From contig QPGO01000111.1 in the NCBI GenBank assembly GCA_008632985.1, forward strand, positions 124,001 to 188,000: DNA of 64,000 nt, written 5' to 3'. A model generated the notes under the pieces. It was not told where the DNA came from and searched no databases. It worked only from the letters and a program-made list of their open reading frames with translations. The position numbers and the translations under genes were made by a program. Each line of letters starts with the position of its first letter. The stretch's first letter is position 1. This DNA is from Psammoneis japonica (taxonomy: Eukaryota). Shown in pieces: positions 3,006-38,316 of the stretch.

Positions 3006-3096
3006 ATTCTTTCCTTTTACTTGATTTGTGAGGTTGTGGGTGGGTCGCGGTTTGGAGTTTCGACTTGCGTTTCCAAAATTTAATTCTGCAATCATC

Positions 3097-3830: not shown

Positions 3831-4040
3831 GAAACTGGAATTGTGAAATGTGTGCTCCACGCACTCAGGTGTTGGGACAAAGATCAATCCATTGTCGTGC
3901 CCAGGGTTTTGAGAGCCACTTGTGAATCCATCAACCAATGCACGTCAGTGTCGCACAGTGCTTTCCATGACCTCAGACCTTGGGAACTTCCTCCACTTGC
4001 TGGGATTCTGGGTTGGTTTTGGGGGGGGCTGAAGCATCAA

Positions 4041-5098: not shown

Positions 5099-6053
5099 GG
5101 TGATGCTTCTGTTGGTCAATACAGTAAGAGTTGTTTGATTAGGCTCTTGTTTCTATTCTTGGATACACAAAATGAGTTCTTTCTCGTTCGTGTCGTTCTT
5201 TTCGTTGTGGTTCTCATCCAGAGATTGCGTGATGGCGCCTGATGATTCGTGGATGTCAGGATTCCGTGCAGTAGAAAACGTACTGACTTCTACGTCACGC
5301 CCAAGACTTCAGAGACGTTCTCAGTTCGCTCTCAAATTGAAAATCACCCCGGCGCGAAAATAATTTCACGAACCGCGATGCTGCTAGACTAAATGATCGA
5401 GTAGGAAAAGGCAAAAGCAGACAGCAATTGTTTATTTAAACTGTCCAAGTAGTAACCGGGCGGGCATCCAGTCTACCACCGTCCCGACCGTAGCAGAGTC
5501 TTGGAGGATACTTGAAGTTCTCAATGTGAATTTGGTAGAAGGTCGTCCTCCACGACTCGTCAGCGCTTTGACCGTCAAGGCGTGACATCTTGCGGTCAAA
5601 ACAACAGACACAATGGCAAAAGAAAACAAAGCATTCATTCTTGACATGTTTGCATAAAATGGAAGCGCTTCATCATCCGCTTTCCTCCCGTCCAACTCGC
5701 ACACTAGCTCTTGTCCTCGGATCAGAACTTTAGCCATCTCGAGCCGACTTTGATCAAGTGCTTGTAACTCTTAGTAGGGTCTTCCGAGTGACTCTCTGGC
5801 TCTACAGCCGCCTTTGAATCAGACAAGAGCAACCCTAATTCCTTGTTCAAACAAAAGTAGTGATATGGTTTTCTGTTAATAAAGATATCATGCATGCAAC
5901 ATACTCGTACTATAATATGTAATCCTGTTTCGTTCGAATGTAATGTAGAGAGTTCACCAGTTCTGCGGGAATAGATCCAATCATCTCATCTCTTTTTGGA
6001 GTGCATTCTTTTTGACTTGGAATCCAAACTGAACAATAACGAATATCTGCTTC

Positions 6054-8977: not shown

Positions 8978-9281
8978 TATGAATCATATCTCTTCTATCC
9001 CTGCGAACCACCTGCTGGGAGTCGCCTCAAATCTGATGAAACTAGAACAATGCACATCATATGCGTGAATAAATAAATATATTAATGGCAAAAAAAAGTT
9101 TCAACAGACGATGTCATCACCACAATGTCTGAAACTTCATGACTTCACCGTCAATTCAGACGAATTGACGGGAGGTAGAAAATTTTGAGCGGGAGGGACG
9201 CGCGAAGCTCGCAAATTGGCCGGAAATCGCCGGGTGGAGCCGGCGTGCAGAGCGGTCACCCCACGATGGATGATGGATGGA

Positions 9282-11010
9282 CTTAGTTTGGTTTTACCCA
9301 TTTGGGGATTCCCCAAAATGGCCAGGGTGAGGGGGAGTTACCTCACCCGTTTGGGGGAGTCCCGGGAAATGAGGGCAATTTTGCGGGAAGGAATGCCTGA
9401 AAGGGCTCAGGGGAGGGGAACAAAAACGAATGGAGTGCGGCAATGTGCAGCAAACACAGCCAGACAGGTGTGCTTTTATTGCCATGATGACCAAGCTAGC
9501 GAGCGAGCAATGTGACATGACGCACGACAATGATTGCATTGACACATCGACACAAAGCACCCCCTTCTGGCAGAGTGAGGAAAGAAGAAACTTCGCCATT
9601 AAATCTGCCATGTTGAGCTGTGATTCAAGATCAAAGCAAGTGGCTGGGTCACCACGCCATTCAGCAGTCTTTGCAAGAAACAACTTTGGGGTTGCAAAAC
9701 CCTGCCAAACCAATGCCACAATCATTGAAAGTGCAGCCAGTGTTGATTGAGAGGTGAACTCATGTTGAAAATTGTTGGACATGGAAGGCAGCATCGTGCC
9801 CCCACTTTGTGCACCTGCAAATCCCCAGCAAACAAAAATGAGCTTGACCCATGCTCTGCTGGTGCCAGCGCTGTGCATGGTTGAGGGAATGGATGGATGG
9901 AGCAAACAAAATTTTTTGTGTGCATGTCTTCCACAAAGAAAAAGGTCTGCTGCACTGCACGCATGAAACTGGCAGTCCAAACAAACCACATAAAACAAAA
10001 TGCAGAGAACAGCCTGCCAATGAGCATGTGCAGAAGCAAAACTGGAAAACGCCACAGTTGTGCATTGTTGAAAACAATGGGCTGCAAATGACACCCAGCA
10101 ACCCACCAGGCACCGTTTCAGGAGCACCAGAACATGGCATTGTCAGTTCATTCCTGAATCTGTGCCATGAGTGGGAGGGCTCAATGGCAACAACAACAGC
10201 AAAAGACACAGTTGCCACTCTAGGAAATGAGGGCAATTGGAATGCCTGAAAGGGCTCAGGGGACGGGGACAAAAACAAATGGAGTGCAGCAACATGCAGT
10301 GATTGCTTGCAGTCAGGTGGTTGTGCTTTCATCCCTGAGACAACTGATTGATGCATGACGCACGACAATGACAATGACCAATGCATCAACACATCAACAC
10401 AAAGCAGCTCCTTGTGGCAGAGCAAGGAAAGAAGAAACTTTATGATTGAATCAGCCATGTTGACGTTGCTCATGTGTGGTTCTTTTTTTGCCACATCCTT
10501 TGCTCTAGAGCCCTTGTGGTTTGCATTCTTGACCACGCGACACAAGAAAGAACACGTGAAACACTGCATTCTGCAAATGAGACAGATCAAAGGAAAGAAT
10601 GAGCATGACCACTCAAATGCACCACATTTTCATTGGCCTTGTGAGGTTGTGCTTTTGTCTCAGCCTTTGCTCTAGAAGCCTCATGGCTTGCATTTGCAGC
10701 TGCATGACAACAGAGTGATTCCAAATGATCCACTTCATTCTGCACACAAGATGTGTCAATTTGAAGAAAAAGCAAGACTGCTCAATTTGCAACATCATTG
10801 TTGGCCATGCACAGCTCTGCTTTTGCATTGGACTTTGCTGCAGATGCGCATGGCTTGCATTTGTGACAGCACCAAAAAACAACAAGTGCAACAATCTGTC
10901 AACACACCAGTTTTCTGAGCACAATCTGTCATGCTTCCATGCATTTTGTGTTTTACATTGTTGACTGCAATGTTGTTCACAAGATTGACTGGTGTCATTG
11001 TTGTTTGACA
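9282..11010 (+). repeat. Patchwork of repeat modules A, C, A', inverted B
   Basis: Direct alignment to 2128-3005 and to 24703-25349. Confidence 0.85.
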
Positions 11011-12416
11011 AAAGCCATCATAAATGGGGTGTGAACGCTCCATGGCATGTTGCCCATTCTTGTTGTGGTCAGTCAATTGTTGATTTGCATGTCTGGTGTG
11101 GCTCTGCATGTGCCGGCACACAAATGGAGCTTGCAGAAATGCACAAGAGGGGGAGCATGGGGAATTGCCAATGCATTGTTTTTTGTTCATGCATTTGGTG
11201 CACATGTGTGACAAAGCATCGTTTGTGCTTGTTCCCTGGGAACCCTTTTCCATGGAAAAAGTGTGGCAAAAGGTGGCAATCTTGGGGAATTTGGGGCAAC
11301 CCCATGGCAAAACCAAACCAAGCAACCCAGCAGGAAGTGGGGACCACACGTCGATGGTGCACATGTGACAGCTTGACTTTGGGCTCAACAAAATCACCTT
11401 GAATGGCTTTTGTGTGACAATTGAGGGCTGTTGTTGTGTGTCTGAATCATTTGTTTGCTTGTGCTTGCAGTTGAGCATGATCAATCTCACCATGTCTCAT
11501 CTCATTGCAATCTTGGGCATGCCAGAACCATGTTGAGAGGGTTGTTCATGACAGCTCTGCAAGGTGGAACTTTTCAAATCACATGGAATAATTTTCGCAC
11601 AACAGCTGTGGTCTGTTGTGGTGTGCTTGAACTTTGCCTGTCCTTGCATTTCAGGGTGATGAGTCTTGCTTCTCATCATTGTTTGGCGCACTGCATGCTG
11701 GAACCACGTTGTGTTGATTGCACATGACAGCTTGACTTTGATCTCAACAAAAACAGTTGGAACAACTTTTGTGTGAACTGTTTTTCCATGCATCATTTGG
11801 CAACGTGTCCTTGTGGTCCAGCATGATTTGGGTCATGCCCTTGTGGAAGCATCTGCCAGAAGAGCATCAGAGGCCGCAATGTGGTGTTGTTCACTTTCCT
11901 TTGGAAATGTCAGCACATTTAATTTGACAAAAGTGCGCTGTTGTTAGATGAATTTCATTTTTGTTTTGATGGTCAATTTACATTCATTGTTGCCGTTTTA
12001 TGTTGGCAGTTGTTGCCATTTTATTTTGCTTTTAAGTTGCCAAAGAATTTCAATGAGCCCTTTGTTGTTGAACAATGCTTTTTGTTTTGATTAATTTGTC
12101 ACATGTTTGTGGAAACATTGACTTTGACAGTGCTTTTCAACAGCTTCACCGCAGCCTTGCATCACCACAGACAATGGCATTTCTTTCTCGCCCCAGTCGG
12201 CCACGCAATTGCCTCTAGGAACGCCAGCTCATTGTCACCTGCACGCTCCAGTTGTCCAGTCAATGGGTCCCTGCCTCCATTTTGGTGCCTTTTCTACATG
12301 TGCAGTTCTCTGCCCATTTCATGACAGCACACCCTCTCCCCAAAATGCTTTTGACGAGAGGGTGCACTGTCATGAATCCTGTGCATTCTGTGTGAATCGG
12401 CAACTGACTGTTGGCC

Positions 12417-15400
12417 ATGGCATCCAATGACTTTACCCCGTCTGACGACGAGGTCGACCCTGACACTTCTTTCCAAATTACCGAGGACTGCAACTTCAAT
12501 GAAATGGAACATTTCACCAACAGTTTCGGATTCGAATTGTTCCAACCCAAGCTCAAAAGCACAATTGCAACGCGTGCCTCGAAAAAGAAGTTTTTGGAGT
12601 CGACGAATTGGACCCCCTCTCCAGAATTCCTCGCTCTTCCCTTCCTTTGTCACAAGCCGAAGTTACGCCGTGTTCCTCATGTTGCCGAAGTTATCCGCAC
12701 CAACAACGTTGTGAGGAAAACCCTTGGCTGTCCCGACATTTGGTCCTGCATCATGACTCGTGGTTGGTCCATTGAGAAATCCTGCCGTGCAAAAGGCGAG
12801 TGTGTCCCACGACATAAAAATCTCGAGGAGGCTCTGCATTTCTCCAAAACATCCGGAGAGACAGAAAAAGAACAGCAGAACCGCATGCTTCTCCACCGTG
12901 ACATCCAGGCAATGGCAGAATTTGTTTGCACGATCATTGCCGGAGACGACCCAAACGATCCTTTATCCGGCAAGCCTTGTTTCTGATTTTTACGGTGCAA
13001 AAGTCTCCAAAGTTTGATCAACGATCGAGCCCAAGACCTCCACAGTGTCGCTGACATCGTCATGTGTTGCGTTCAGCACAAGCCCAAGGACATGGACCAT
13101 TGGTTCTTGAAGATTTTCCGTCACGTCAAAACCCAAAAGGAATGGCACCTCTTTGTCAACAGCTTTCTGGTTGCATGTGATGCTGACAATCCTGGTGCCC
13201 AGGCGGACAAGATCAAGGGGTTCCTTGCCAACTCAACCGGCAACACAAAGAACACGGTGACAATGCAAGGCGATTCCCTTGCACGCCGTGAGGCTCGTGA
13301 AGAAAAAATCAATTCCATGTTGAATCACGAATTTGGGAAGCGTTGTCCCAAGGAGCAAATTGGTGTCCGACCTGGGCACAGCAAGCAGCTCACAATGCTC
13401 CGTTGCAGAATGTGTGATCAGAGGGCCGACTGCTTGGAAGACGATGACAAACAAATCTGCAACTCCAAAACCAAACGCAAAATTAGGAGGACAAGCAAGG
13501 ATGGCACCTGTTTGCACGATGGCAAGAAACCCCCCCACCTCCCGCCTTCTGCCTTTCCACCTGCATCTGCAGTCTCAACGTCTCTTCTCACACCCCATGA
13601 TTGTTCACGACCCACCAGAGCCTTCCTTGACTGTTCCCAGCAAGAAGGCCAAGCCTGCATCTCGCAACAAACAAGCACCTCCATTGCTTTCTGGCAATGT
13701 TCCGTCGTCTGGGGAGGCGCACCGGACTCTCACCGCCGACCTTCCGTCACTCTCAGAAACCACGGAAAACCTAAAACCTGCTTCTACCTCCAAAGGTCCT
13801 TCGTCCAAACCTCATTCCTCTCCTCCTTCTGTTTCAGCTAATCCTCCCGCGGTTGCGTCTCCTCCTGGTGACCCTGATGACATGTCATGGCTGGACCTGT
13901 CCACACTCCGCGATCACTTTGAACCGTCCAAGTGTCAACCCGCCACCACCGAGGAAGTTTCTTCTCATTTGTCACACCTGCACATCATTGACAAAGCCAC
14001 CGACACTGATCGGGTGCTTCATCATTCTGCCGCCGACTTTTGCCTGGTGGATGACTTGCGGGAAAACTGGCACACGTTCTCAAACAATGCGCCATCATGT
14101 GATTCCGCCGCCGCATCTCGTGTTCGAACCGAGCACCCTCCCAACCTTGACCACTTCTCCGAGGAACTCTCCGTCGCCCGTCAGGCTAACTCTCTGTACA
14201 AAGGGCACTTTGGGTGCCTTCGGGTGTGCATTCCTGCCCTTCTTCCACCCATTTTGTTGAAGGGAGAGTCCGATTTGACACGTGACGGACCGGTTGCAGT
14301 TCAAAACGGCGAAGCACGCAGGACAAAGTTCGGTTGTGCAGGGAGAGCGCATCACCCCAAGATGCCGGGTTCCACCAAACTGGCCAAACCAAAGGCCACT
14401 TACGGACTTGATGTCTTTGAGTCCGACGACAACTTCGACGCCAACGAGACCTCCAAAATCAAGGCGATGGCAGCCGACATCCTTGACTCGATTCAGCTTT
14501 GCAAAAATGAGGTAGAGCTGAAAAAACTGGGCAATCCACCACCACCCAACTGGTCACTTCGGTGCGAGCAATGCTTGCAAAAGTTGGGCAACGAAATGGG
14601 CTGTCTCTTCTTCAAACGTGAGGACGTCACCATGCAGGGATTGTGCATTTCCCGGGGTCAAGACTGTGATGGTCACCATGACAATAAAAACTGCATCTGG
14701 TGTCAATGTGGGAAGACAGCTGCAGGTTGCTTCTTTGTCATGGATGCCTTTGGCAACATCTGGTCCTTCAAGGTTGTTGCCAACAGCAGAAGGACCGTTG
14801 GTGAATGCTGCGACGACCAGCACGACATGAAGCCTGTGCTCACTTGCACGCACCACAGTCAAGCTCAGCTTGATTTTGCACTTAAAGACTTGGACTTGCA
14901 GCACGATGGTCCCACCCACCCCGATGTGTCGCTTTCCAGCATTGCATTCAAGCATCTTTCCCTTGACGACAACAGGCCGTGGGACAAAGTTCTTGTTGGT
15001 GGAGGTGGCGACTCTTCATGTGTCGAGGTGCACATGGATCGACTCAAGTTCCCGACTTTCCCAGTCAGGGACTTCCACTTGTCTGCCCCAGTCACAGTGA
15101 TCCACCGTTTCAAGAACATTGTGTGCTGATCAGGTCCCGACCCAAAACAAGTCATTCGTTTGGCGATCCATGCTGGTCATCCCACCGGATGTCACCGATT
15201 TTACTGCGTGGGGGACAAGTGTCTTCCCAACCTTTGTTGCGAAGGTGCCGACCCATTTGTCAACTTTGCCGATCACTTGCAGAACACATTTGGGGTGCTG
15301 TTCAGTGACCCACAGGTGGGTGGGATCAGCCCCACCAATTTGACGTACGAGAAATTTTGCGACGCATTTCTAGACCCTTGTTACGTCGGAACCGCGAATG

Positions 15401-17570
15401 ACCCAATTGACACAATGGTGGAAGAAATCTATGCTGTGCTTCTCTGGACAAAGGACAACGTCGACACCAACGAGTTCTGTCCCAACTTAATGGAACAATG
15501 GTGCAAGGCAGCGTGTGATGCTTGGGCAGACCGGGGAGCAGATTTCAGTGAGATTCGTCTCATGTTGGTGCTGCAATGTCTGGTGCTGGCAGGTGTCGCA
15601 GTGAAAGACCATCCAAGACTCAACAACATTGTCTGTCCTGTCTTCAATTTGGGAGCTGCCACACAACTGGGGCATGTCCAACCGAAAGAAAGGCCGCTCA
15701 TGCACCAAAGGATGTCATCCGAAACAGGAACCGAAGAGCACGGTTGGAACGGAACCGAGCACAAACTTTGTGAGAATTCAGACAATCGCTGCACCCACAT
15801 TTTTGATTGTGTTTTCTGAGGACCCTGTTCAGGACAAGACCTGTTTGCCTTCTCTCCCTCTGGCCAGCATCTCTGCAAGCCATGTGGGTCAACCAAGCAT
15901 GAAATTTTGGAGTGTGTTGACGACGACCCCAACCTTTGCCAATCACAAGACAACACTGAATTGCGCACATCTGTGTGTGAATCAGCCGGGCTGTCAGATG
16001 GTGCCAGTGTTTTCTCTGTTGTTGATGGACTGCCCGTGGACAATGAACTAAGCTCATTGTCTTCGGAGGAGTCTAGACTCGCCGCAAACAATGAACTGAG
16101 CTCATTGTCTTCGGAGGATTCTCGGCTTGCCGCAGAGAATGAACTGGGCTCAATGGATTTGGAGGAGTCTTGACTCGCCGCAAACAATGAACTAAGCTCA
16201 TTGTCTTTGGAGGATTCTCGACTTGCCGCAGAGAATGAGGGATTCGGATGAGTCTCGACTCGCCGCAAACAATGAACTGAGCAGATTGTCTTTGGAGGAG
16301 TCAGTGTTGTCGGAGGACTGCTCGTGTCTTGATTCGGGCTGCCGCGTTCCAATTGTCGCGATGGATTCTGTTGTCGTTCAGTCGCAGGATCAAGAATCCG
16401 ATGAAGATGATGCAAGCAACGCAACCGCGTACGATCGACCCGAGCCACCTGTCCTTTCACAAGCACAAGATTTTGACTTGGACGAACATGTGAATGCCAT
16501 GTTTGCGCAAGTCTGTCAACAGCCAAAGAACTCCTGCAATTGTTCTGTGGCATGTTTTTCACAAATCTCAACCCACAAAATGACTCATTCTGTGCTTTTG
16601 TTTCACATTGTCATGTCATCCCCAGACAAGACGGAGGTGCAAATGTCCTGTGGCTTTGCATGACTGGGCCCGTCATGGCCGGAAACCTGACATTGGATGA
16701 GATGTGTTCAGACCGTGGCATGGAGGCTGTCCGATCCACTCAGCAAAGAAGAGATGAGGCAAGGTGTCAAGTTGTTGCGGATCTCTGTACAAACTCAAAT
16801 GTTCATGTGTGCACTGTGTCCCTGCAGGATGGTGGCCCAACTTGTCACTTGAATTGCAACATTTCTGCTAAATTTTTGCCCAAAGGGTCAAGACGCGGTT
16901 TGCAAGAGACATCGATTTTAAGAAAAGCGGGTTCACTCAGATTTGCATGGACCACCACTGGATGCAAAAAGGGGAGTGGCAGCAGTCGACATTTGGAAAT
17001 TGCTTCTTTCGTGAAAACCCAAGGGAGGTGATGGAAACGTTGTTTCATCCAAAGCTCCAGAGGTGCCACGTCACAGTCCCGTGCACCATGTGGTCACCAA
17101 CCCAAGTCGCGCGCAATTTGAAATGCATCCAGGAATGTGCACTGGTGCTGGGAATGACACAGGACATGGCATGTGCCGAAGTGACGATTTGCCAGGCTTC
17201 CCAGGAAATTGTCAAGCAGGAACGTGGGGTTTGGCTGGGCAAACCATCTGACCAGGAGGCATTGCATTTGGGAGTCACGGAACAGGAAATTGGGCAAACA
17301 CTGCCAGATGCAGAAGCCAAAGCTGTCCTGGCATTCATCCAAGATTGTGGATTTTGCAATCCAAAGGAACTGTTCCTGCTCCTGTCCTTCGAGAAGAGAG
17401 TGCACAATTGGAGGGACAAGGTCAGCAGATGGCCCAGCAGTTTCTTGCTCTGCTGGTTGCCAGTCGGATTGTTGAGCAGATTTTTAAAGTGGGTGAGTGA
17501 ACGTTGCATCTGTTGGTGTCCTGGTCGTCCCGATCAAGTTTTCTGCTGCTGTTGTCGGATGCTCACATGC
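12417..17570 (+). pseudogene. Large transposon cargo gene with HxDxxN motif and C-terminal helical ExxLCE domain
   Basis: ORFs 12411-12986 and 13014-13841 share one frame; 13333-15129, 15160-15819 and 15907-16173 share another. Each break is a single TGA, consistent with CGA->TGA. Only 2 Tyr in the 598-aa ORF. The downstream part (16.5-17.5 kb) may be further exons or a separate gene. Confidence 0.6.
16041..16300 (+). repeat. Coding 48-bp tandem repeat (NELSSLSSEESRLAAN), about 5 units
   Basis: Repeated aatgaact(a/g)agctcattgtctt(c/t)ggagga...gccgca units. Confidence 0.9.
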
Positions 17571-17573
17571 TTT

Positions 17574-20500
17574 TCACCTGCTTTTGTGAAACAGCTCTCC
17601 CCATGCATTTCTGCGGTCTTGAACTGCCCAAACATGCTTTGTCCCATCGTGTGTTTCAGCAATGCCAGGTTGCTCCTCACACACCAACAATTTGTCGCCA
17701 ACAGCATCGATGGGCACCAAGAAAAGCTTGGGTGAGTGCACTGTTTGTTCAGCAGTGGACAAGTTGTTGTTCTTCACTTGGCCCAATTGCCAGCGACTGA
17801 CCAGGTCGGTGTGTTGCATTCGTTCAACCATGGTGCGCTTGTCAGGCTGTTGCGTGCAAGGGTGAACGACCGCATGCAAGTCACCGTCGCTTTCCCTTTG
17901 GAAGAAACAGCGAAGTCTTGACGGGAAGCACAATTCCCCCCTGGTTGTGCCAAAAGTGAACATTCGCCCAGTCATGAACCGGTCCTTCACTGTTGCAGTC
18001 TGGGTGTGCACGGCAAGTGTCTTTCCCGTTCTTGTTGCAGAATTTGGTTTTGCAAACAAGGTTGATGGTGAGATTGCCTCCTGCTCCAATGCAATCCCTC
18101 CACTTCTTTTGAAAGAAATGGAGCCGGACCGGGTGAGCCTGACATTGTTTTTGCTTCCCGTGCCAGAGAAAGCTCACTGCGTTGTTTGTCGCACTGCAGG
18201 TGATGGAAAAGGCACTGCCACCCAGTGTGTGACTGTCATTGCCACGTGTCACGTCCTTTCGTCCAACTCTCGATGTGATCCATGGGTTGGCCGACAATGC
18301 ACGGTGCACCATCATTTGGTCTTGCATGCGTGACACAACCTGACCCAGGAAGATGTCAAAGCTGCGTTGTTGTGCCGTGGCAGATGGCAATTTGAAAAAA
18401 TCCTCAAGCAAAGATTCCCCAAGACCAGCATCAAAGTTCATGGCATGATGGAAATGACATAGAAAGATTGGAAGGTGAAGAAGCTTGTGAAGTTTTTGCA
18501 GCTTCCACCCAGCCCCTTTGTGTCCAGGGGAGCAATGCACGGTGCGAGACACCAGCAACCGAATTTTCTTTGTGATTTTGGTCAGGTCAGTTGTGTCGGT
18601 CGGTGGGTCGCCGAGTCGACACCAAGCATGGAAGGCAAGCAGGTCTTCCAGCAACTGGGCGTGTTGCCCAACACTGCAACTGAGGGGCTTTCTCTTTTTT
18701 TTCCTTTTCCGTTGATTGTGGCTGTTGCCTTCATCCTCGGACTCGTCCGGTTGGTGTTCCACACAATCGTTGGCATCCGTTTTGCACGGATCATCTGTTC
18801 TGTTGTTGGAATGATGATCGTCGCCATTGTTGCACTCTTCCGGCATGTGACAGCGATTGATTCGGAACCCAGGCATCCCATGCCCTGACGGCAATGGAGG
18901 ATTGTCTTGGTCTTCCTGGAGAAAACAAGATTCGCAGACATCTCTGCCTTCCTTTGTCAGCAGCAACAAATGAAAAACAAAGGCCATCCCCGCCCAATGA
19001 TTTGAGTTGAGGCAGGTGAGTGATGTGGCCCCACCCTTGAAATTGGTTCGTAAGAAAGAATTGCAAGTGGATCGGTGGTTGCCAAACATTTTTTCCACTG
19101 ATCTGTCAACCTCGCTTCTCACTGAGTTTGTCATGCTGTCAACAAAAACACAACCTCCCTTTTTAAAGTTCCGTTTTCAAACAGGTGCATCATGTCGCTT
19201 GCCGTGGAAAGGGTTGCTCCGAATGGCTGTTCTCCGAAATCTGCATTGAGCAAGCTGTTGGCAGGCACATTGTGCTGCTTCATGCAATGAAGCTGCTGCA
19301 GCCAGTGGCTCCTTTCTTGCTTGTCAAGACTGAGATCATTTGCGTGGTTCTGGACCAACAAAATGTCGCCAGCCCTGACGAGTTCGCACTCCTTCCAAGG
19401 GTCGTCAAGCTCATTGCATCCGGTCATGCAAAACCTGGAACAACGTTGGTGACAGTTCTTGGCACCATGCCCACCCACAAGGCAGTCACCACTCTTCGCA
19501 TCTCCGTTGATTGGGATTGTTGTTGGAATGACATGAAGGAAACGCACCTCATCACTGTGTTGAACGCAGCAGCGAAAGCCACCATTTTCCATTGTGTCTG
19601 GCAGAGGCTGGAGCATTGTTGCCAACACCTTGTGATGATCCCGGATGCTTTGGCCCTTCTCCAACTTTCGGGCGTTAGATTGCTGTTTGGCGGCGGAGGA
19701 GGACATTTTTTCTAGGTCGGGAATGCAACCAAGGACACGCCACTTCGCTCTGTCATGCCATTGGTTGCAGGCAACATGAGCCGACGTAACTGTGACGGGT
19801 TCTCTGCAGGAAGACGACATGGAGGCTGTCTTCCCAGTCTTGTCAACGCAAATTGTCAAACATTCGAGGAACTGTTTAAGAGGATCCAAGACCCTGGCTG
19901 TGCATGCACTTCTGCACCACTCTCTGGCCAAAACACACTTGTCGTGCTTTCCCTTTGAGACATGCATTCCGCATGGATGGGCAGTGTCGGCAAGATTGCT
20001 GGGGTTGGCCCATGTGCAAGCATCCAGCATGAACGATTCCCACACATCTTTGAAATTCCATTGCAGAACTCTTGCAGTCGTCTCATCGCGTTCCCCATTG
20101 ACGCTTTCTAGGTTGACTGGAATCATCTCGCATTCCGGACCTGCAAAAGATTCGTGCAGGTTCTCCATTGGTTTGGTCCGGTGAGGGATTTGCGTTCCAA
20201 GATGGAAGGTGCTGCCACAGTGTCTTTCGATGAACTCAGCGATCTTGTCGCACAGGTGAAGCGGTGCTCTGCAGTCGTCCAAGAGCTTGCACAGCTCTGC
20301 ACAAGCACCGCTGAGGTTGCCAAGAGATGGCATGCAGGCAAGTGCATCTTCGGCTGGGCTGCGGCACACCTTGCCCAATCGGCTGTCTTCACTCCGCGAA
20401 TCATCTTTGTCTGAGATGTTTGATTTGTCATGATTTGCAACTTTGGAGCCCTCCATTGTGACATCTGGCAACGCATCAAACGAGTCATCTGGTGACAAGC

Positions 20501-21008
20501 TTGCTTCAGAAGACAAGTCCAGGGACATGTGATGAATTTCCTCATGATGGGATCACGACCCAAGAGCGGAGATGTCATCATCAAACGGTGGTGACCATGG
20601 TTCATCGCTTCTGTCATTTTCGTTGGTGGTGGACCCAAGCCTGATGTTCGCTGCAGACGCACCGCGTCTGGACCGCCTCAGCCTTGGCTGTGACGAGTCA
20701 TCTGATGAGGAGGAAATGTCGAGATCAACCGACCCACGTCTGCGAGAGAATTTGTTGCTGACATTGGAAGTTTTAGCCGCAACCCTTGCTGACAACTCTG
20801 GCAATGGGCAGTTTGTGACTGCCTTGCGACGTGACAAGTTGGACCTCTCTTGAGCAAACGAAAAACACAGCGGGCAGTGATGGAAATGTGTGAGCATCCA
20901 TTTGAAGGATCGTTTGCAACACGGACATGCGACCGCACCATCCCCACCCTGCCAGCCACCGTTTCCTTCCATTTTACATTTCAGCAGGTTTGTGGGCTTC
21001 CCAAACAC
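17574..21008 (-). pseudogene. Plavaka-type transposase, frameshifted and hypermutated
   Basis: Motifs ICVDKTG, WRVLGCIPDL, IRDHHKVL, GDAKSGD, SDMMHLFENG, WKLQKLHKLLH, NFDAGLGE, CRAHPDCNSEGPVHDW match the family as I recall it once Cys/His are read as Tyr; N-terminal CPCCKRSF...H zinc finger; split across ORFs 20553-21008, 19131-20528, 17881-19134 and 17574-18089. Confidence 0.8.
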
Positions 21009-21265
21009 ATGTGTGTTCGAATGGCATCACCGGCTCAGTTCGTGAAAAGTGAAACAGTTCAGGCGGCAAGGAAGAAAAACACGACACGAATTGGCACGAA
21101 AACATTGGTGCATTGTGTTCTTCCCATCAATGAAAACATTGATGGGTGAGAATGAATCGAGTGTGTTGGGATCATTGACAACTTTGAGCATGAACAACTG
21201 ATTGCAAAGGTTGTTTTTCCATGGAAAGGAGAAAATAAGTTGTGACGTGATGCGCCGCAATGCCA

Positions 21266-22442
21266 CATGGCAAGAAGTCCAGGATGGGTGCACCCACACC
21301 TGCTGCAGCAACAGACACAAACGTTGCAATCAACAATGAATGCTGTTGTGCAAAATGACCACTCAATGGCGCATTGGCCAAATGACTGCTGGAGGAGATT
21401 TGAAAGTTTGACAATCATGACAGAAGATGGAAGGTGACAAATCATGGATTCGGAGTGCAACGCGGCTTTTGATGAGTTGGATTGTTTGATGCAATCTTTG
21501 CCACAAGGCAGGATGGTGCATTCTGATGACACGGGCACAGCTTTGATAAAGTTTGAGAGCGGCACACATGCGGTTAACCCGCACCTGCGCCGTGACGTGA
21601 TGGACCTGTGTCGCATGATGAGTGAGGACGACATCCAAGCAGAGGTGCAACCACATGGTTTGGGTGCACCAACATGTGAGTGATTGGAGCACAGAAGCAA
21701 TTGAGTGCATGCACGCCAGCACAGGCATGATCTCAATTCACGACAACCTGAACTGGTTGAATGGCATCGTCAACCGTGGGATTTGTGCTCGCCATTGCCA
21801 GGAGCATTGGGACTGCGTCGCGACTCACCAAGACAGGCAAGGAAGGATGTGCTGTGTCTGCAGCACTTGGCACAATGAAGGAGAGAAAGAGCTGAGGGAT
21901 GAATTTGCAGCGGGTGCGTGTGATGACACAAAACCAGTCATTGACAGTGGAGATGTTTCGAGATTGAGACGGAATTCAAGCATCAGCATGCCGACCCATG
22001 GCATGGATGAGACAGGCACTTGCGGACCGTTGGGAGAAACATCAGCGAGGGGAGGCACTTGCGGAGACTGGCAATGGACAAGAAGGGAATTGTTTGTGAT
22101 GCATTAAAACTGGCGAAGTGGTTCCAGCGTGACATCATGCGAGACAACCATGAAAGACTTTGGTTCTGTGAGCAAATGGAGTTCTTCAGGTTGTCTCCAT
22201 CGACAGTCAATGAATGGATGCGGGACATCATCAGGAAGGAGGATGGTGAGCGGGAGAAATTTCACAGCAGGAGAAAGGAAAGGCGTTGGGTGGAGAGACG
22301 TCGTCGCATTGAAGTTGACGAATTCGTGAGAATGGTCGGAGCGGAGACGAGGGCTTTCACCCACATGACTGACTGTTCCGACAGCGGGCGATGCATCAGT
22401 TTGAGAGTCACCAGGTTAGAGGGAGATGACGAATTGGACTAG
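21266..22442 (+). pseudogene. Degraded transposon cargo ORF, unknown function
   Basis: Successive protein-like ORFs 21444-21683, 21622-22107 and 22020-22442 broken by TGA stops and frameshifts. Confidence 0.4.
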
Positions 22443-22855
22443 AAAAAACGATTTGGCGCCAAAAGGCATGGATGTGCTTGGGCCCCAACCGCAAACCGGA
22501 ATGTTGTTAAAGCAGGTGAGGGGTTTGTTCATTGCAGTAAAAACAACTTTTGTGGGTGCATGTTTCACAATGATGTTTTGAACAAAATGCTTTTGCAAGC
22601 TGTTTACACTGTGGAAGTGGATTTCGACATTGCAGCAAAAGAGAGGTTTGAACTGGAATTCGCAGGGATTCAAAATTTTCGCAAGACAATGAGGAATGGC
22701 AAAATGGATAAATTGCATGTGCATTAAAAATTTTGGTCAATTCTCCATCATGTTGCATTTGAGAAAAAGGAATCATTGGTGGCAACTGTGAGATTTTTAG
22801 CACCAAAGAGAGGTTTGAAAATTTCCCAACGGCGAAAACAACCAGGGACACAAGG

Positions 22856-24120
22856 CATGGAGCCACCCACAATTGGCAACAGTGGCACAGGCAATGGTGA
22901 GGAAGAGGAAGAAAGAAACTGCGGGGGTGGCTGGAGATCAACCAACAAGCCCAAGGCTGGCTGCAGCGTTGGTGCGGGTGGGAGCCACTGGGGATCACCA
23001 GTCCATGAAGAGAGAGGCAGAAGAGGTGGCGCAGAAGGAACTTTTCCCAAAGGCAAAATTCCTTGTCAAGGCGGACATGGCAAGCAGTGGCAAAGTGTCA
23101 CGGCTCATCAGGAAAAAGACAGCCGGCGGCAATTGCAGCAAGCGAGACTCGGCAGGAGCTTGGGAAGACTGGGCAAAGAAGTGCGTCATGCATGCAATTG
23201 GCACGAAAAGGAGCACGGTCACTCAGGCGATCAAGAACAATGCAATGACTGGCAAGTGTTTTGTGGTGCACGGCATGTTAGATGCAGCTGTGCTTGGCAC
23301 AGCTGCACCTTTATTTGCTGAAGTCGTGTTGACAGAGAACGAAGCCAAGGAGATGCGCAGTCAGAAGAAGCTGGCAGCAAAGGGCAGAGGAGGGAAGAAG
23401 AGCAAGAAGCGGAAGAAGAACGATCGTGCGGAAGAGGAAGAGCCGTTCCTGGCGACTTGGGGGGAGGAGACAGTGACAACGATTGTGGAGGACAAGCGCA
23501 AGAACAAGGAAGCACATGCTTGGTTCTATGGAAACATCCTGAAATTCACAAAGAGCACCACCACATGGAGAAGGAAGGCAGAGTCAGGTGAGACGAAGGC
23601 AACCGGTCTGGCCACAGTGAGCGACGAGGCTCTGGCACTGTTGACATTGGAAAACTGCTGGAAGAGTTGGGAGCACAAGGCACGTCATGACAAGACTGTT
23701 GCAGCAGGGGGAGGTTCGGACAAAGAAGATGAGGAAGAGTCGGAACCAACACCCAAGCACACGGACCCGTCGAGGCAACGAGACTCGTGGAAGGATGCAG
23801 GGATTGAGCGATTCAACGAACTGCTTGCGGAAGTAAAGAAAGACAGGTTGAGCAAGGAGGGCATGCAGTTCGACACATGGTGCAGCAAAGGCAAGAAAAG
23901 GAAGAGTGACGAAAGAGACAAGGGATCAAAAAGAAAGAAAAAGCCGGTGGAGGAGGCAAGAACACAGGCAACGACAGAGCTTTCAAGTGACAACGAGGAG
24001 AAGGAGGAAGAGGTGACGGGCGAGAACAGAGGAGACAAGGACAGCAAGGAAGAGGAGGAGGAAAGTGATGCGGGCAGCGATGCGAATGTAGATGCAGATG
24101 ATGAGCGAGCTGCGGCATGA
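22856..24120 (+). pseudogene. Transposon accessory protein (K/E-rich; TVSDEALALLTLEN-W...PK-TD...W-DAGIERFNEL)
   Basis: 415-aa ORF with 1 Tyr; this motif set is one I associate with ORFs next to Plavaka-like transposases; probable intron near 23254-23320. Confidence 0.6.
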
Positions 24121-24702
24121 AAAGGCAGCGGAGGCTTTTGTCAGTGTGACAATGGAAAGAGGACAAGCAAAGCAGTGGGTTTCAATGTCAACAGTTGTGA
24201 GGTTTAACGAAGCATTTCAGGGATCACTGTTTTGTGATCTAACCTTTCATTTGACAACCAGTGCATGCAACAGAAGGTTCTTTAAACCAACACAATGCGG
24301 TGATTGGTGCCAATTTGTTGTCAAACAAAACATTTTGAACATCGCTTTCAAAAGGTAAAAAGTGACGGAATTCTGACAGTTGAGGGAGGGGTCCCACAGG
24401 TGAAGGAGGGGACCCATGGTGAAAAATGTTGTGCTGTGACATGTGATAAAAAATCACGTTCTACACAACTCTCTCAAAAGGATGCCTTTGTTTTTACACA
24501 TGCAACAGTGTTGAAAATTACCCATGAGAAGGGTGGTCAGGATCACCACATTTCGCGCTCTGATGAGCTGCTGCTGCATGGCAAATTTTGCACTGTTGCT
24601 CCACTTGGAACTCAACAACAGTTGGAGTGGCCTTTGTGGGTTGACTTGGTTTGTTTTCACATGTTTGTTTTGTCTGGCCGTGTCATTTTTTTAAGTCAAA
24701 CT

Positions 24703-25349
24703 GGAGCTGTGATTCAAGATCAAAGCAAGTGGCTGGGTCACCATGCCATTCAGCAGTCTTTGCAAGCAACAAATTCAAGGTTGCAAAACCCTGCCAAACC
24801 AACACCACAATCATTGAAAGTGCAGCCAGTGTTGATTGAGTGCTGAACTCATGTTGAAAATTGTTGGACATGGAAGGCAGCATCGTGCCCCCACTTTGTG
24901 CACCTGCAATGCGTGATGGCTGGTGCACGGGGCTGGGGCCCTGGCCATTGAAAAATCCCCAGCAAACAAAAATGAGCTTGACACATGCTCTGCTGGTGCC
25001 AGCACCATGCATGATTGAGAGGATGGATGGATGGAGCAAACAGCAATTTTTGTGTGCATGTCTTCCGCAAATGAGGCCTGCTGCACTGCATGCACGAAAC
25101 TGGCGGTCCAAACAAACCACGCGAAACAAAATGCAAAGAACAGCCCACCAACAAGCATGTGCAGAAGCAAAACTGGAAAATGCCACAGTCGTGCATTGTT
25201 GAAAACAATGGGCTGCAAATGACACCCACCAACCCACCGGACACTGTTTCAGGAGCACCAGAACATGGCATTGTCAGTTCATTCCTAAATCTGTGCCATT
25301 GATGAGTGGGAGGACTCAACAGCAACAGCAAAAGACACAGTCCCCACTC
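24703..25349 (+). repeat. Repeat module C, copy 2
   Basis: Aligns with 9615-10220 (gagctgtgattcaagatcaaagcaag...), with a ~45-bp insertion near 24908-24952. Confidence 0.9.
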
Positions 25350-27419
25350 TCACCATCACTGTCAAGTGATGAAAGCAAAGAGGAAAGTTGCCAACTTTCA
25401 AGAAGAAAGTCAAAAAACTCCATGAAAATGTGTCCCATGGACTCTGACAATGCAAGACATCTTGAAAGCACAGCCAACAAAGGAGAAGCAGAGGAGAGTC
25501 CAGTCAGAGTCAAGTTTGGCCTGGTGAAGGCACATGTGATTAAAGGGGAAGACAAGATCCTTTGTGACAGCAACTGGAAGTGGCACAAAATGGGTTGATG
25601 GGATGAGAATGGGGACAGTGCTCACTGGCAGCAATGGCAATTTTTGCATCCAGTTGTGTCTGTTCTGCCGCATTCATCAGTGTGTGAAGCCAGTGTCGTC
25701 TGGTCCAGACACTGTGGCTCATTGCAAAATGCCTGCTGGAAACTGGCACATTTGCATGACTGTCATCATTTGACAGCAACTGGTGCTCTGCAATTGCACA
25801 GCACTGAATGCCAGATCATGTTGCATCAAGCTGCAACATTTTCCATTTCATGTTTCTGAACTGGAGGCGACAATGCCAAGACAGTCATCTGCCATGCTGG
25901 TTGTTGCAAGTCATTTGCCTCCAATTCAAGAGAGGCAACCTGAGGAAATTGAGCAAATGAGCGGTTGCGGTGGTGACGCTGTTGACAGCATCGAGGTGAC
26001 ACTCAAACCACTGGGTGTTCCCATGTTGCTTCAAGTGCACTGTGCAGCGACCAAACATCATTTCAGTCAGACCCAAATCAGGGCAACACAGAGCAGAACA
26101 GATGATTGCAGCCCCCATGGCTTCAAACACATGTTGACAATGCAGTGCGCACAGTGCACTGGCACATTGTCCAGCACTGTGATCATGGAGGGCCATGCGG
26201 CGGACGTGTTCCAGCCGCACGTGACCAAAGTCGTGCACAAAAATGACATTTGCGCGATTTTTGCATGGTCTCTGACTTGCAAATGGTTTTTCACCACCAA
26301 AAATGTAGATTCATTCAAATTCTAATGTTTTGCAACACTGACAAGACTCGTGTGAGTGTTGCAAAATCATTGTCATCGTGCCATCAATGTTTTTCATTGC
26401 GACAAACGAGTCGCAACACAATGGCTGATTTTTGGCGAAATTGTTGCCGTCATTTGGATGTCAACCAAGTGTGTCTTTCTGTGATGCTTCTTGGTAGATT
26501 TTCCACCCACAAAGAAATCTCAGCATGAAGAGCACTGACGCACAATCAGCATTGAGTCCACTGAGGAAGTTCATGATGCATGTTCCATGAGGACTTCAAT
26601 GCCCCACAAAAAACCATTTAATTCTTCACAATTGTTCACACTCTAGACACCTGTAAAAGCCAATCCGCTTGAGCATTTCACATGAACATGCTCCGTGCAC
26701 TGATGGGCACACAATTTATGTTCAAAATCGATCGTCGTTTTGTGTGTCACCTGGGGCTGGAACACGTGTCGGCGGGGCAGCATCATCGGAGTGCACAGCA
26801 GCAGCATGTTGGTGACTCAAAATTGGAGGCATCCCACCAGAAGGGAGCATGCCATGCAAATCAGCAGAAATGGGAAATGAGGGCGGCTCGGCACACACAT
26901 GGCAGGTGCAGTCGCAAGGTGCTGGGGACGAAGAACGGGAGGTCGTCATGGTCGAGTTGTCAAAAAGCGTGTTTTTTGTGCGGAGAAAAGGAGCTGCCAA
27001 AGCTGCGTTTCTGCACCCCCGGTTTTTGGAGGTCAAAGTTTTAGGGGAGAACATGGCTCTGGATTTTTCCTGTAACTGTTGGCATTTGTCTGCAAATGCA
27101 CAAAGGAATGTTAGGACATTTACATAGAAACATCATGTACAAAATAAGATATAAATCTGCGACGTAACCATGACATCACCACATTCCCGCCTGCCACGCA
27201 CAGGGGTGGCGCAGAAGATGGAAGATGAACGGTGATCACGGTTAGAGGCACTCTCTAGAGTCTAAGCTTTTCCATCTTGACAGCAACGCGAGCACATTCT
27301 CATTACTGTCCTTGTCTTTGTAGTGTCGGTAAAGCGTTGGACCGTGCCGGTTGTCAAGAAAGAACAAGATCTGGCACTGAAGAAAATTGTATGAGAAGAA
27401 ATTGAAAATAGAAAAAACA

Positions 27420-27815
27420 ATGGCCTCACGAAAAGTACCTCCACAATTGGCTCGAGAATTACAACGACACATTGCCAAAAAGACAAGCAGTAGTAACAGT
27501 GGCAGTGGCGGTAATAATTCACGCAATAAGGTCTTGTGGGGATGTCTTGGTTTTACGGGTGTCGCTGCGTCGTTGCCCTTTATCAGTATGCATTGGATTG
27601 GTGGTTTGAACGACAAGGAGGGTGAATTGACCGCGGCACAAGTTCGGCGTGGTGCCTTTATGAATTCTGGTTCGAAGGATGCGGGGCGAGACGAGAATTG
27701 GGACTTTAGTACGGGAACTTACAATAAGGACAATCCGCATTATCGAGATTTGTTTGAACGAGATAATCCGAATGAAGTGGAGCACGGAGAAGAGTTTTTC
27801 AAACGAAGACCATGA
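27420..27815 (+). CDS. Small single-pass membrane hypothetical protein (131 aa)
   Basis: Intact ORF MASRKVPP...; one hydrophobic segment followed by LTAAQVRRGAFMNSGSKD; normal TA content. Confidence 0.75.
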   Translation: MASRKVPPQLARELQRHIAKKTSSSNSGSGGNNSRNKVLWGCLGFTGVAASLPFISMHWIGGLNDKEGELTAAQVRRGAFMNSGSKDAGRDENWDFSTGTYNKDNPHYRDLFERDNPNEVEHGEEFFKRRP

Positions 27816-27857
27816 CACAATATTATTAAATTAGAAAGAAAGCTACTTTTATGTAGT

Positions 27858-30800
27858 CTATTGTGAATTAACAGTCACCATCCACTGCATGGGAAACGTA
27901 TACGTGAGCTTTTCATTGGGTGCTGCAGAAATTGTCAGTCGAACGTGCTGAAGGTTATAGATCCCTCCGGAAGCAATCGAAACTTGGAGCGGAACAGCCA
28001 ATTGATCTCCCCCTTCCAGCTCCCATGCAAACGATTCTGCTCCGATAAATGCAATGCGACCGTCGGAGCTGTGTTCCATGCAAAAGTCAAACTTGACGGC
28101 CGAGCCGACGAGTCGATTCATCAAGGTAATGTCTAGAGCAATGCCCTGTCAAAGATATAGCGGCATCGGGACAAGAGCGTTGGGTACACAAACTTGCAAG
28201 GAATTGCCAATACACCAGTCACAATAAAAGGGTGCACTTACCACTGGACCTTTTGAAAAATCGTGAGTAACCGTTGATGGATGCTTGGCTGTAATGGTGA
28301 TTGGACACCCCAGGTCAATTTCTGCCGGTCTCACCGAAAGCTGCGTCAAGTGATGTTGCCCATGGATATTGTCATGCCCTCCACCATTGCCGTCTTGTTC
28401 TCCACAAGCGTGCCACGAACAAATCACGTTAATCTTGGACAAGAGCGATTCGGGTTCTTGTGGACAGAGACGCGCCAACGATGTTGGATGAACGTTGCTG
28501 GAAGTAGCGTCATTGAGAGATCCAACCTCAGAGGCCCCATCTGATGCAGATCCACCGTTGAAATCGTCGTCGTCACTTGTGCTGACTGAACTCTTGGCTC
28601 TTCTAATGGAACTGATCGAACGAGGATTCCCCGAGTCTTCCTCCTCGGCTGCAATTCTCGCGAGCTCTGCTTCATGATCTTGAAGGTCGTTCTGCAACAA
28701 AGGTGGAGGTGACAGAAGCGTGAAAAGATGGTGAGACCTCCCAAGTCGACGCCCTTCATCATATTTGCAAAGCCCATTGACAGACACGTACCTGAAACTC
28801 ATTATGCGCATGTTCCAAACATATATAGTCGGTTCTGTCCGGGTCCGAGCTGAAATCTTGGACTTCCCGGAACTGGCACTTGCTCAACAGCGCGTTGGTG
28901 GTGGTACCATCTGTGGAAACGGCATCCCGTGGGACAAGGCGGTAGTGCATTGTAATCCGCTCTTGCCATCCAATCTCCGGCGTCGCTGCCGGCCCATTGT
29001 CGGCGACTTGTCCGACGAAACGCTCCAGTTTGTATTGCCGACTCGTGATGCTCAGCGTGTCCAGGGCGACTTCGAGGTTGGTCGGTCTGTCGCTTCGTTG
29101 GTTGGTAATCTGAACAAAGAAAAAATGTTGAGCGCTCACAGGGGACAACAATATTATGAGGAAATTACAAGCTTTCAGACTCACTTCCAGCGACAGCACA
29201 TGTTCTGATGCCTTTCGATACGATGGTATGATAGAAGCCATGAGCGACAAGGACGGATAGACAGGCACATGAACCATTTTCCGCAACCACCGCCTTGCGG
29301 TATATGTCATTGTAGGATCCCACAGCTCGTAACGGTACAGCATGTAAAAGTCCTGCTTGCCGGACCCGCATATTCTTGCCTGAACGGGAATGTCGACTGT
29401 CTCTCCGGGGTAAATGGGACCCTGGTTGCCTTCGCCACCGACGGGTAGAGACATGAGTGTTCCGGATGGTCCCACGCAATTCGACGTGGCATCCGTGATA
29501 GAGGCAACATTATTGTGGACAATATTGATCCACGGAAGATTGGTCTTGAGAGTGATGTTGCATGCGGGAGCTGTTCCCTTGTTGGTCAGACGAAGATTCC
29601 AAGAGCTGATTTGCCCTTCCAAAGCTTGGCCAGTGTAGGCGGTGTTGCTGGGCTCGGTCGACGATGAGCTGTCCGTCCGAAAGGCCTTGACAGTGAGACA
29701 GGGCATGCCTTGCTCGACCTTTGCTTTAAGAAGAACACTCTCACCTCGAACTGTAGAAGGGTGACAGACACAAATTATCATGTGAGTCAGAGTACGACTG
29801 TGAGACAATCAAGACCAACGTGGCTTACTTCGATTCGCTTTTTGATCTCGTGTGTTTTGTAAAAGCGGTCCCTTTATATCAAACGGATGATAGACCCAAA
29901 TGTGATCGAGCAGTTTGAACCGAACTCCCATGATTTCCAAATCGCCCTCGAGCAGCGGACAAATCGAAAGTGACATGTTCTTGGTCGACCCGGGCTCCAA
30001 CGACCGACTGGTCTTGGTCACTACAAAGAAGGGTGTTTCCATCTCACTCATGGGCACCCAGGGTGTCGTCATGGCCTCTTTAGGATTGCTCGTATTCATG
30101 CGACCAAAGTGCGGCACGGTAAAGTCAATGCCGTGAAACGACCAAGTCTTGGCGTCCTGCTGATGAGAGCTACCGCCGACATTGATAGCGTCCTCGCTTG
30201 TACAAATACCTCCATGCCGCACGACATGCCTCGCCACCAACTGTATGCTTTCCAACTGTATCGGAATCGCAAGCGGATTACTAATCTCAAAGCCAACCGA
30301 CAGTGGTTCCATCATGGCTCGCACACGTGGCTTGGCCTTTGAGGATAGCTTGGCAGCCCGCTCGGTTCGTTCCAGGTTTGTGTTTTCCTTATCCATCTCA
30401 TAAATGACTCGCCGAGTCGCAAAATTGTCAATCTTGCCCAAGGCTTGGATCATGCCCAGACTCATTGTGGTTTCTTGTCCAAACTTGTACTGAGGATTGG
30501 CAGCAACCCGCAATTCTGCCTCGACACTGCATTCCAATTGTTTCCAAACCGACTCTGATCCATCGTCGGGAGTGCCAAAGAATTCCAAAGCCAAATGGTC
30601 GTCTTGCTCGGTCTGGGGTTTCTTCTTTTCCGTATCGACACAAATCTGAACCGTCGTGTCTTCAATACACGGCAGGTCCATATTGTGCAATTCCAAAACA
30701 CGCGTCGCACCCGGCGTCACGTCCAACACGTGTTGAATATGTTGGGTCCGTTCCTCGTCGGCTCGACTCGACAAGAGAGCCATGCGGTCCGACCCCACCG

Positions 30801-37793: not shown

Positions 37794-38316
37794 GATCGCT
37801 TTAAAAGAGAAGGATTTACTCTCTTTCTCGCTTTCATTTAGCCTAATGTTGGTACAGTAAACCTGTCCCCCTTTTTCACTGCCCTTTCATTGCGGGTCAC
37901 AGAAGATGATTATCATCATGAAAAAATTCCAAAATCGCCTGTATTGTTTCGGTGGTACTGTACTGCATAGTAGAGTCATTGTTATTAAATAGATGTCTGA
38001 TGTGACCAAAGTGCGTTGAAAAAGAATGTCCTGTACATAGGCCTTTTCTGTTCGATTGGTCACAACATACAAGAGAAATTTATTGTTGTGATAGATCGCG
38101 AAAGTTTAAGCCCTAATTATGTCCTGACTTTTCAGTTGGAATGACTATATATTTTCAATTAAGCCCTTAGAATCTCACAGATGGTACTGTACAGTACCGG
38201 GCACGCAACCTGAATTTTCTTCCCTTTCAATCATACCTATCAACGTGATCCATCGTCAATACTCACATTTATCCCACGGTGTGGTCAGACGATTTTGAGT
38301 GCCGCCGATCAATACG

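Follow-up and report, generated by a model that had tools for sequence, protein, structure and literature searches.

Near-complete loss of TpA from repeats of the diatom Psammoneis japonica, apparently separate from and faster than CpG decay

The locus and its Plavaka-type element

The stretch of DNA discussed here, called the window, comprises 64 kb of contig QPGO01000111.1 of the diatom Psammoneis japonica (assembly GCA_008632985.1, positions 124,001 to 188,000 of the forward strand), and the feature of most interest in it is a young DNA transposon, probably of the Plavaka type, about 12.8 kb long (11779..24583), nested in an older repeat. A 1-kb sliding profile reveals two sharply distinct states of composition across the window. 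In the gene blocks (approximately 5101-9100, 27001-42700 and 50201-56400), the ratio of observed to expected (O/E) TpA is 0.4-0.75 and that of CpG 0.8-1.26 along the profile, with per-block values of 0.55-0.56 and 0.86-1.00, respectively. In the repeat blocks, TpA O/E is 0.02-0.18 and the O/E of TpG and of CpA 1.4-2.2, at a GC content (0.45-0.53) unchanged relative to the genes. A two-state segmentation of TpA counts per 100 nucleotides (nt) places 37.9 of the 64 kb (59%) in the TpA-poor state, with block edges that are sharp at 100-bp resolution.

The element as a whole has a TpA O/E of 0.095 and a CpG O/E of 0.64. Its CpG-rich coding core (12417..24120) is delimited by CpG counts per 200 nt, which at about 12400 climb from 2-5 to 7-13 before coming back down at about 24200. 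An earlier note on this DNA had described the core as nearly exhausted in TA and plentiful in CG, and the older-looking domains 1 and 4 as having lost both. The counts agree with the description of the core, which retains 58 TpA (O/E 0.082, block-bootstrap 95% interval 0.062-0.105) and 497 CpG (O/E 0.659, interval 0.61-0.715), the CpG-rich motif GACGACGAGGTCGACC being located at 12444-12459; depletion of the two dinucleotides is clearly unequal, to a degree well beyond chance. TpG O/E is 1.53 and CpA O/E 1.51, with a GC content of 0.508. The older repeats range overall from 0.027 to 0.068 in TpA O/E and from 0.13 to 0.56 in CpG O/E. Most of them have indeed lost both dinucleotides (TpA O/E 0.042-0.068, CpG O/E 0.13-0.32): the block at 1..5100 (TpA 0.052 and CpG 0.31 over 1-4900), the left and right parts of the older host repeat at 9101..11778 (0.068 and 0.25 over 9300-11778) and 24584..27000 (0.043 and 0.32 over 24584-26600), the second portion of the block at 42701..50200 (0.042 and 0.13 over 47001-50000) and the block at 56401..64000 (0.052 and 0.29 over 56800-64000). 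The first portion of the block at 42701..50200 (43001-47000) is the single older block that retains CpG (0.56), at a TpA O/E of 0.027.

The limits of the element come from X1, one of three public sequencing runs of one sample, which is possibly the source of the assembly. One X1 contig joins 11778 directly to 24584, omitting 12805 nt that begin with TG and end with CA, and a second joins 11863 to 24587. Such contigs represent other copies of the host repeat lacking the insert, and the element is therefore nested in, and younger than, its host repeat. No convincing terminal inverted repeat was found, the nearest thing to one being a weak 30-nt inverted match (80%) between 11857-11886 and 24544-24573; no exact 10-mer is common to both ends of 12417-24120 and no target-site duplication was identified. 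The non-coding ends (11779-12416 and 24121-24583) are AT-richer than the core (GC 0.44-0.45) and retain more TpA (O/E 0.20-0.22, mostly in TTA contexts) along with less CpG (0.37-0.38). A 21-nt inverted repeat (12315-12375) that could form a hairpin immediately precedes the first ATG of the core. One of its arms has CA where the other has TG, their sole difference, as would result from a palindromic TA or CG that was resolved in a different way on each arm. Also within the element is a tandem array (family D1, 15986..16310) with a start-to-start spacing of 48 nt.

Two genes remain recognizable in the element. The first, here called the accessory gene (13855..15936, plus strand), was delineated by tblastn with the only two homologues recovered in a word-indexed search, P0001 (52% identity over 541 aa, 14317-15936) and P0002 (33%, 13855-15879). 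It occupies one frame interrupted by TGA stops at 15127 and 15817, both opposite arginine in P0001, as produced by CGA>TGA changes. Its product matches no Pfam family and no sequence in PDB (best E 0.68), and its AlphaFold model is unusable, with a mean predicted local distance difference test (pLDDT) score of 36. A conserved H-x-D motif prompted us to consider a TET/JBP-like dioxygenase, an identification that nothing backs and that we discarded. The second gene, on the minus strand, is a pseudogene of a probable Plavaka-type transposase (17589..20930) that runs through frames -3, -2 and -3, with frameshifts near 19150 and 17940 and a stop near 20553 (tblastn).

The Plavaka label, which the earlier note had already applied, is supported through homologues of this large minus-strand gene. 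An exhaustive phmmer search with its 473-aa open reading frame (ORF) returned 320 homologues; among 13 that were tested against the Pfam model PF18759 (Plavaka), 10 matched at E<=0.001 and 7 exceeded the curated cut-off of 26.3 bits, and homologue P0127 is placed by Atlas with Plavaka clusters (score 0.97) and one Transposase_21 cluster. The ORFs of the element in the window themselves reach no Pfam model. Plavaka transposons were first described in basidiomycete fungi, whereas the host here is a diatom.

The element belongs to a multi-copy family: 5834 X1 contigs align to 9001-27000 at 80% likeness or more and 805 at 99% or more. Summed X1 depth over the element is 1100-5200, and about 60-75 for the long near-identical contigs listed. 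At 19150 an extra C is present in most of the depth, and at 17952 about half of it is one base shorter, so the frameshifts are not common to all copies. Elsewhere in the genome the transposase frame is probably open in some copies. The absence of the frameshifts from much of the depth of other copies, like the CGA>TGA origin of both stops in the accessory gene, suggests that ordinary decay of the element may have been low.

The earlier note had also considered the reading frames largely intact, which is true in part. The element contains 24 ORFs of at least 150 aa (the longest of 601 aa), more than in any of 200 simulations, and this excess beyond simulation indicates that real coding signal is left. 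Its unusual composition nonetheless inflates ORF counts: TAA and TAG together occur at 6.9 per kb in the element versus 30.3 per kb in genes, and random sequence with the dinucleotide make-up of the element yields a mean of 8.9 such ORFs, versus 2.2 with that of the gene blocks. Many of the long ORFs are thus an artefact of TAA/TAG loss, and in-frame stops (three or more) and two frameshifts interrupt the two recognizable genes.

TpA loss, CpG decay and the direction of change

To set the element against related DNA, we used 12 metagenome loci that encode relatives of its transposase, 11 of which were pooled as a baseline. These 11 loci have a TpA O/E of 0.50-0.66 and a CpG O/E of 0.42-0.88. 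Relative to this pool, TpA in the element amounts to 5.4 versus 40.3 per kb (about 87% lost), CpG to 41.1 versus 41.4 per kb, and the gain of 29.4 TpG+CpA per kb comes close to offsetting a loss of 34.9 TpA per kb. Decay of CpG by deamination of 5-methylcytosine, which the older repeats of the window have undergone, also generates TpG and CpA. It cannot remove TpA, however, and as the sole explanation it is ruled out by an element whose CpG is at the level of its relatives while most of its TpA is gone. Expressed as -ln(survival), the loss of TpA comes to about 1.9 and, according to the baseline used, that of CpG to 0.18-0.39. The former exceeds the latter by a factor of at least 5-11, a lower bound since TpA is near its floor. 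These figures support the proposal of the earlier note that TpA loss is a process separate from CpG decay and much faster than deamination of 5-methylcytosine, the speed being understood as a minimum. The twelfth locus (24% identity to the transposase) shows a state of its own, the reverse of that of the young element, with a CpG O/E of 0.02 and a normal TpA O/E of 0.55.

The same note had called the two losses uncoupled. Their speeds are indeed very different, but they are not fully independent: within the TpA-poor DNA (35 one-kb windows), a weak positive correlation links TpA to CpG (Spearman 0.39, p 0.019), which one would anticipate if the two dinucleotides both track age. In the same DNA, the correlation between CpG O/E and TpG+CpA O/E is -0.88.

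The direction of the TpA loss can be read from protein alignments, since tyrosine codons necessarily contain TA. In three alignments (of 33, 12 and 2 homologues, nine of which are translations of metagenome loci), 18 columns are conserved as tyrosine; the window has cysteine in 8 of them, histidine in 5, tyrosine in 2, phenylalanine and proline in 1 each, and another residue in the last. Tyrosine is thus retained in 2/18 columns, compared with 324/444 for other conserved residues (Fisher p 1.4e-7). The next-worst retained residue is isoleucine (4/13), replaced by threonine, valine or methionine, which is expected because its ATA codon holds a TA. Comparison with the two closest homologues, P0001 and P0124 (51-52% identity), gives the same picture: their 41 tyrosines correspond in the window to cysteine (17), histidine (9), phenylalanine (5), tyrosine (4) or other residues (6), and the 23 from P0001 alone to cysteine (11), histidine (5), tyrosine (4) or phenylalanine (3). 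Changes of TAY (where Y is a pyrimidine) to TGY and CAY imply TpA>TpG and TpA>CpA, respectively, and the loss is accordingly directional, with TpA converted to TpG or CpA.

These replacements bear on the idea that the element, or all repeats of the window, are natively poor in TpA, a composition inherited for instance from a virus or another donor with this bias. In favour of the idea, this genome has so far shown no unmutated copy. Conserved tyrosines turned into cysteine or histidine at 13/18 columns are a sign of damage, however, the eleven relatives have ordinary TpA O/E values, and unrelated repeat blocks of the window are in the same state as the element. We find an inherited composition highly improbable.

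Both strands are affected. Tyr>Cys and Tyr>His replacements are both present in genes on either strand, and the TpG and CpA O/E values of the core are nearly equal. Editing of transposon transcripts from A to I by an ADAR-like enzyme with a 5' U preference, followed by copying back into DNA, is another conceivable origin, and U-A is the preferred ADAR context according to a recent preprint on the alga Bigelowiella natans (10.64898/2026.01.13.699255). The strand symmetry of the products (TpG 1.53, CpA 1.51) argues against such an origin, as do the non-coding ends of the element and the old repeats, which are equally affected. The element moreover encodes a transposase of the Plavaka type, a DDE enzyme, and cut-and-paste DNA transposons have no RNA-to-DNA step in their cycle. 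It is most improbable that RNA editing is responsible.

GC content is consistent with this balance of dinucleotides: it is 0.50-0.51 in the young element, 0.445-0.502 (mean about 0.476) in the relatives and, after their later loss of CpG, 0.47-0.50 in the old repeats. A multi-copy family such as this one, with its thousands of contigs at 80% likeness or more on 9001-27000, is where GC-biased gene conversion among repeat copies might drive A:T>G:C changes. The change is limited to TpA, however (the ratio of TA to AT is 0.09, versus 0.56-0.61 in genes), ApA and TpT are still at O/E 1.0-1.8 and GC does not differ from that of genes, all of which makes biased gene conversion extremely improbable.

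Several observations weigh against a TpA-specific process that is distinct from CpG decay and has acted on a young element. 1) The CpG baseline derives from relatives that are 33-54% identical in protein; with the window's own genes as baseline, the element has lost about one third of its CpG. 2) The CpG retained by the element could be unmethylated rather than young. 3) TpG<>CpA doublets, which number 61 in 1997 nt between repeat pairs as compared with 1-4 in gene paralogues, were considered as proof of independent TpA mutation and rejected, as a two-class estimate indicates that CpG decay alone suffices to account for them. The transitions and transversions between repeat pairs (499:192) are likewise uninformative on context, TpA being gone from both copies. 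4) Among the variable places in X1, of which 40 of 1869 were listed (a biased sample), 13 of the 25 located within the element are neither of the TpA type nor of the CpG type, a warning that ordinary divergence between copies of the element is not negligible. 5) The TpA changes may have arisen in this copy or been inherited from an already mutated master copy. 6) Just 54% of sampled words of 18001-28000 are present in X1.

The last figure would also be expected from an artefact of assembly or base-calling, in which a long-read base-caller reports TG or CA at heterochromatic TpA sites that carry a modified base, the DNA itself still having TA. Misreading of this kind would mimic Tyr>Cys and Tyr>His replacements as well. 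X1 contigs nevertheless agree with the TpA-poor DNA: one of 726 nt differs from 11166-11891 at 1 position and one of 1004 nt from 25257-26260 at 3 positions, in two stretches for which the TpA level of genes would predict about 25-35 TA. This agreement checks the reads rather than another strain, as X1 may share the sample of the assembly. We judge an artefact very unlikely indeed.

Restriction to repeats and surviving TpA sites

The central gene block (27001..42700) served as a control, with a TpA O/E of 0.55 and a CpG O/E of 0.97. It comprises Trs85 and two subtilase genes in inverted orientation, all identified by Pfam. Trs85 is an intron-free ORF of 983 aa (29812-32760, minus strand) whose best named relatives are from raphid pennate diatoms (Seminavis, Mayamaea, Nitzschia, Cylindrotheca and metagenome-assembled genomes of Bacillariaceae), with 46-52% identity over 99% of the query, which places the host among diatoms and not fungi. 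The subtilase (Peptidase_S8) genes, at 34032-37886 on the minus strand and 38377-41824 on the plus strand, are arranged head-to-head, each encoding a long C-terminal extension, and share 71-77% of their nucleotides. Both have ordinary levels of TpA and CpG, so that this duplication has been spared.

Could TpA>TpG/CpA be a neutral bias acting on the whole genome without any targeting, with selection preserving TpA in genes? Such a bias would fit the ORFs of the gene blocks, on which selection acts and where TpA is itself a little reduced (O/E 0.52 for ORF-covered DNA). DNA of the gene blocks that is covered by no ORF of at least 100 aa, taken across all gene blocks as a proxy for spacers and introns, has a TpA O/E of 0.71 (266 sites in 4877 nt), however, which is above the value for ORFs and about ten times that of the repeats. 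The edges of the TpA-poor blocks are, furthermore, as sharp as 100 bp, and those at about 9100 and 27000 coincide with the rise of X1 depth to multi-copy levels (at 600-nt resolution). TpA this abundant in non-ORF DNA beside the genes indicates a loss aimed at repeats, with no genome-wide bias masked by selection, a possibility that we consider very unlikely. Across the 64 kb examined, TpA loss is thus confined to repeats, the neighbouring genes and their spacers being spared. The earlier note had argued for an active process rather than drift or biased gene conversion, a view backed by the loss of tyrosines, the non-ORF TpA O/E of 0.71 and a GC content that is not raised.

TpA sites surviving in the repeats were counted in 1-4900, 9300-26600, 43001-50000 and 56800-64000, and their numbers are small. 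Of the 151 survivors, 38 are TTAA, a proportion 6.6 times that seen in genes. More generally, YTAR (R being a purine) is over-represented among survivors and RTAY (ATAT, ATAC/GTAT) is nearly absent. In a rough mass balance against the relatives, TAC and TAT appear mostly to have become TGC and TGT, and TAA mostly CAA. If it is adenine that is targeted, this pattern suggests that a pyrimidine on the 3' side is favoured. Such a preference would resemble the U-A-C context of the natural substrate of TadA and of early adenine base editors.

The remaining features of the window lie in its older repeats. The two flanks of the host repeat are 84% identical between 9615-10221 and 24704-25350, and a direct repeat pair inside 56401-64000 (57622-59741 and 61900-63934) is 80-82% identical. 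An exact tandem duplication at 47840-48442, in the most CpG-poor block, consists of two 300-nt copies spaced 303 nt start-to-start; as these are 100% identical, the duplication is much younger than the DNA surrounding it. Pfam scans of 126 ORFs from 9000-26700 and 122 ORFs from the other TpA-poor blocks yielded no credible transposon family, the sole match being a HIT domain (56584-56985) at the edge of a block, and an Rfam scan of the window matched no family.

A putative TpA-directed mutation process and its known counterparts

Taken together, these results make it quite probable that the repeats of this window have been struck by a targeted and nearly complete mutation of TpA to TpG and CpA, distinct from CpG decay and much faster. 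The process would consist of A:T to G:C transitions on either strand, restricted to the TpA dinucleotide, and it would act on repeat and transposon DNA and run almost to completion. Repeats would follow an L-shaped path, along which TpA is lost first, with a slight increase in GC, and CpG next, bringing GC back down. The Plavaka-type element would stand at the corner of this path, its TpA largely gone, its CpG as in its relatives and few other lesions yet accumulated, while the older repeats would have undergone the subsequent, slower decay of CpG to TpG and CpA expected from deamination of 5-methylcytosine.

An enzyme presumably stands behind the TpA loss, and two candidates can be proposed. 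A nuclear enzyme of the TadA/ADAT2 kind might deaminate adenine in DNA at T-A, preferably followed by a pyrimidine; or the T of T-A might be modified such that it mispairs with G. TpA being its own reverse complement, sequence alone cannot separate the adenine candidate from the thymine one. The process may represent a genome defence comparable to the repeat-induced point mutation (RIP) of fungi with the opposite chemical direction, perhaps triggered by repetition, chromatin or small RNA, and it may be active today.

Among classical systems, fungal RIP is the closest analogue. As is the case in fungal RIP, transitions specific to a dinucleotide have hypermutated repeats on both strands, with sharp edges and destruction of coding capacity. 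Fungal RIP, however, converts CpA/TpG to TpA, raising TpA and lowering GC, and the reverse is seen here. The usual RIP indices are inverted: TpA/ApT is 0.03-0.11 and (CpA+TpG)/(ApC+GpT) is 1.6-2.0, at a GC content of 0.47-0.51. The inverted subtilase paralogues of this window, about 72-77% identical, are unaffected. A paper on Rhizoctonia (PMC7884421) concerns ordinary RIP indices.

The literature consulted contained no report of TpA hypermutation in diatoms, and the sole matching report is the B. natans preprint (Mettrop et al., bioRxiv, 2026). Of 302 new mutations in 15 mutation-accumulation lines of this alga, 231 were located in two integrated viral regions; 230 of these 231 were A>G or T>C changes, all of them at TpA, at a rate of about 6e-7 per site per generation (10.64898/2026.01.13.699255). 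The genome of B. natans also contains clusters poor in TpA and rich in CpA+TpG, its TpA-poor coding sequences are enriched in DDE and reverse transcriptase (RT) domains, and an ADAT2-like deaminase is proposed by the authors (10.64898/2026.01.13.699255).

The two systems have much in common. In both, A:T>G:C changes occur at TpA only, yielding TpG and CpA on the two strands; foreign or mobile DNA is targeted, forming TpA-poor clusters rich in TpG+CpA, and transposon domains are found in TpA-poor coding sequences. They differ in host and target, B. natans being a chlorarachniophyte (Rhizaria) with integrated viral DNA affected and P. japonica a diatom (Stramenopiles) with transposons and old repeats affected. 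They also differ in extent, the giant-virus region of B. natans having a Rho of 0.45 where O/E is 0.03-0.10 here, which is near complete, and in the nature of the evidence, the rate having been measured in B. natans and the process being known here from its footprint alone. The timing relative to CpG decay and the bias by which RTAY is lost and YTAR kept are described here and are not reported for B. natans in the abstract, Results or Discussion of the preprint.

We propose tentatively, and at a little less than even confidence, that diatoms hold a RIP-like defence with the opposite chemistry, in which an enzyme, most simply a nuclear deaminase of the TadA/ADAT2 type that prefers T-A-pyrimidine, operates at transposon chromatin and removes TpA over a period brief relative to CpG decay, and that this defence is old and widespread in the SAR supergroup (Stramenopiles, Alveolata and Rhizaria). 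With the same footprint measured in a rhizarian alga, a diatom system would indeed be old and widespread in this supergroup. If the footprint saturating diatom transposons is the same, the process is not the curiosity of a single species, and it would constitute a second family of RIP-like defences, targeting adenine (or thymine) instead of cytosine. The nested young element would provide the order of events, with TpA erased before decay of methylated CpG, frameshifts or stops build up.

There would be practical consequences as well. Repeats freed of TpA are nearly without TAA and TAG and give rise to long false ORFs in annotation; damaged transposases escape Pfam, as in this element; and dating of repeats by Kimura distance or CpG decay will be wrong. 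The footprint points, too, to an activity occurring in nature that edits adenine in DNA within a defined sequence context. If the proposal is true, TpA-directed mutation would be an overlooked major force shaping repeat composition, gene-finder errors and transposon death in marine phytoplankton.

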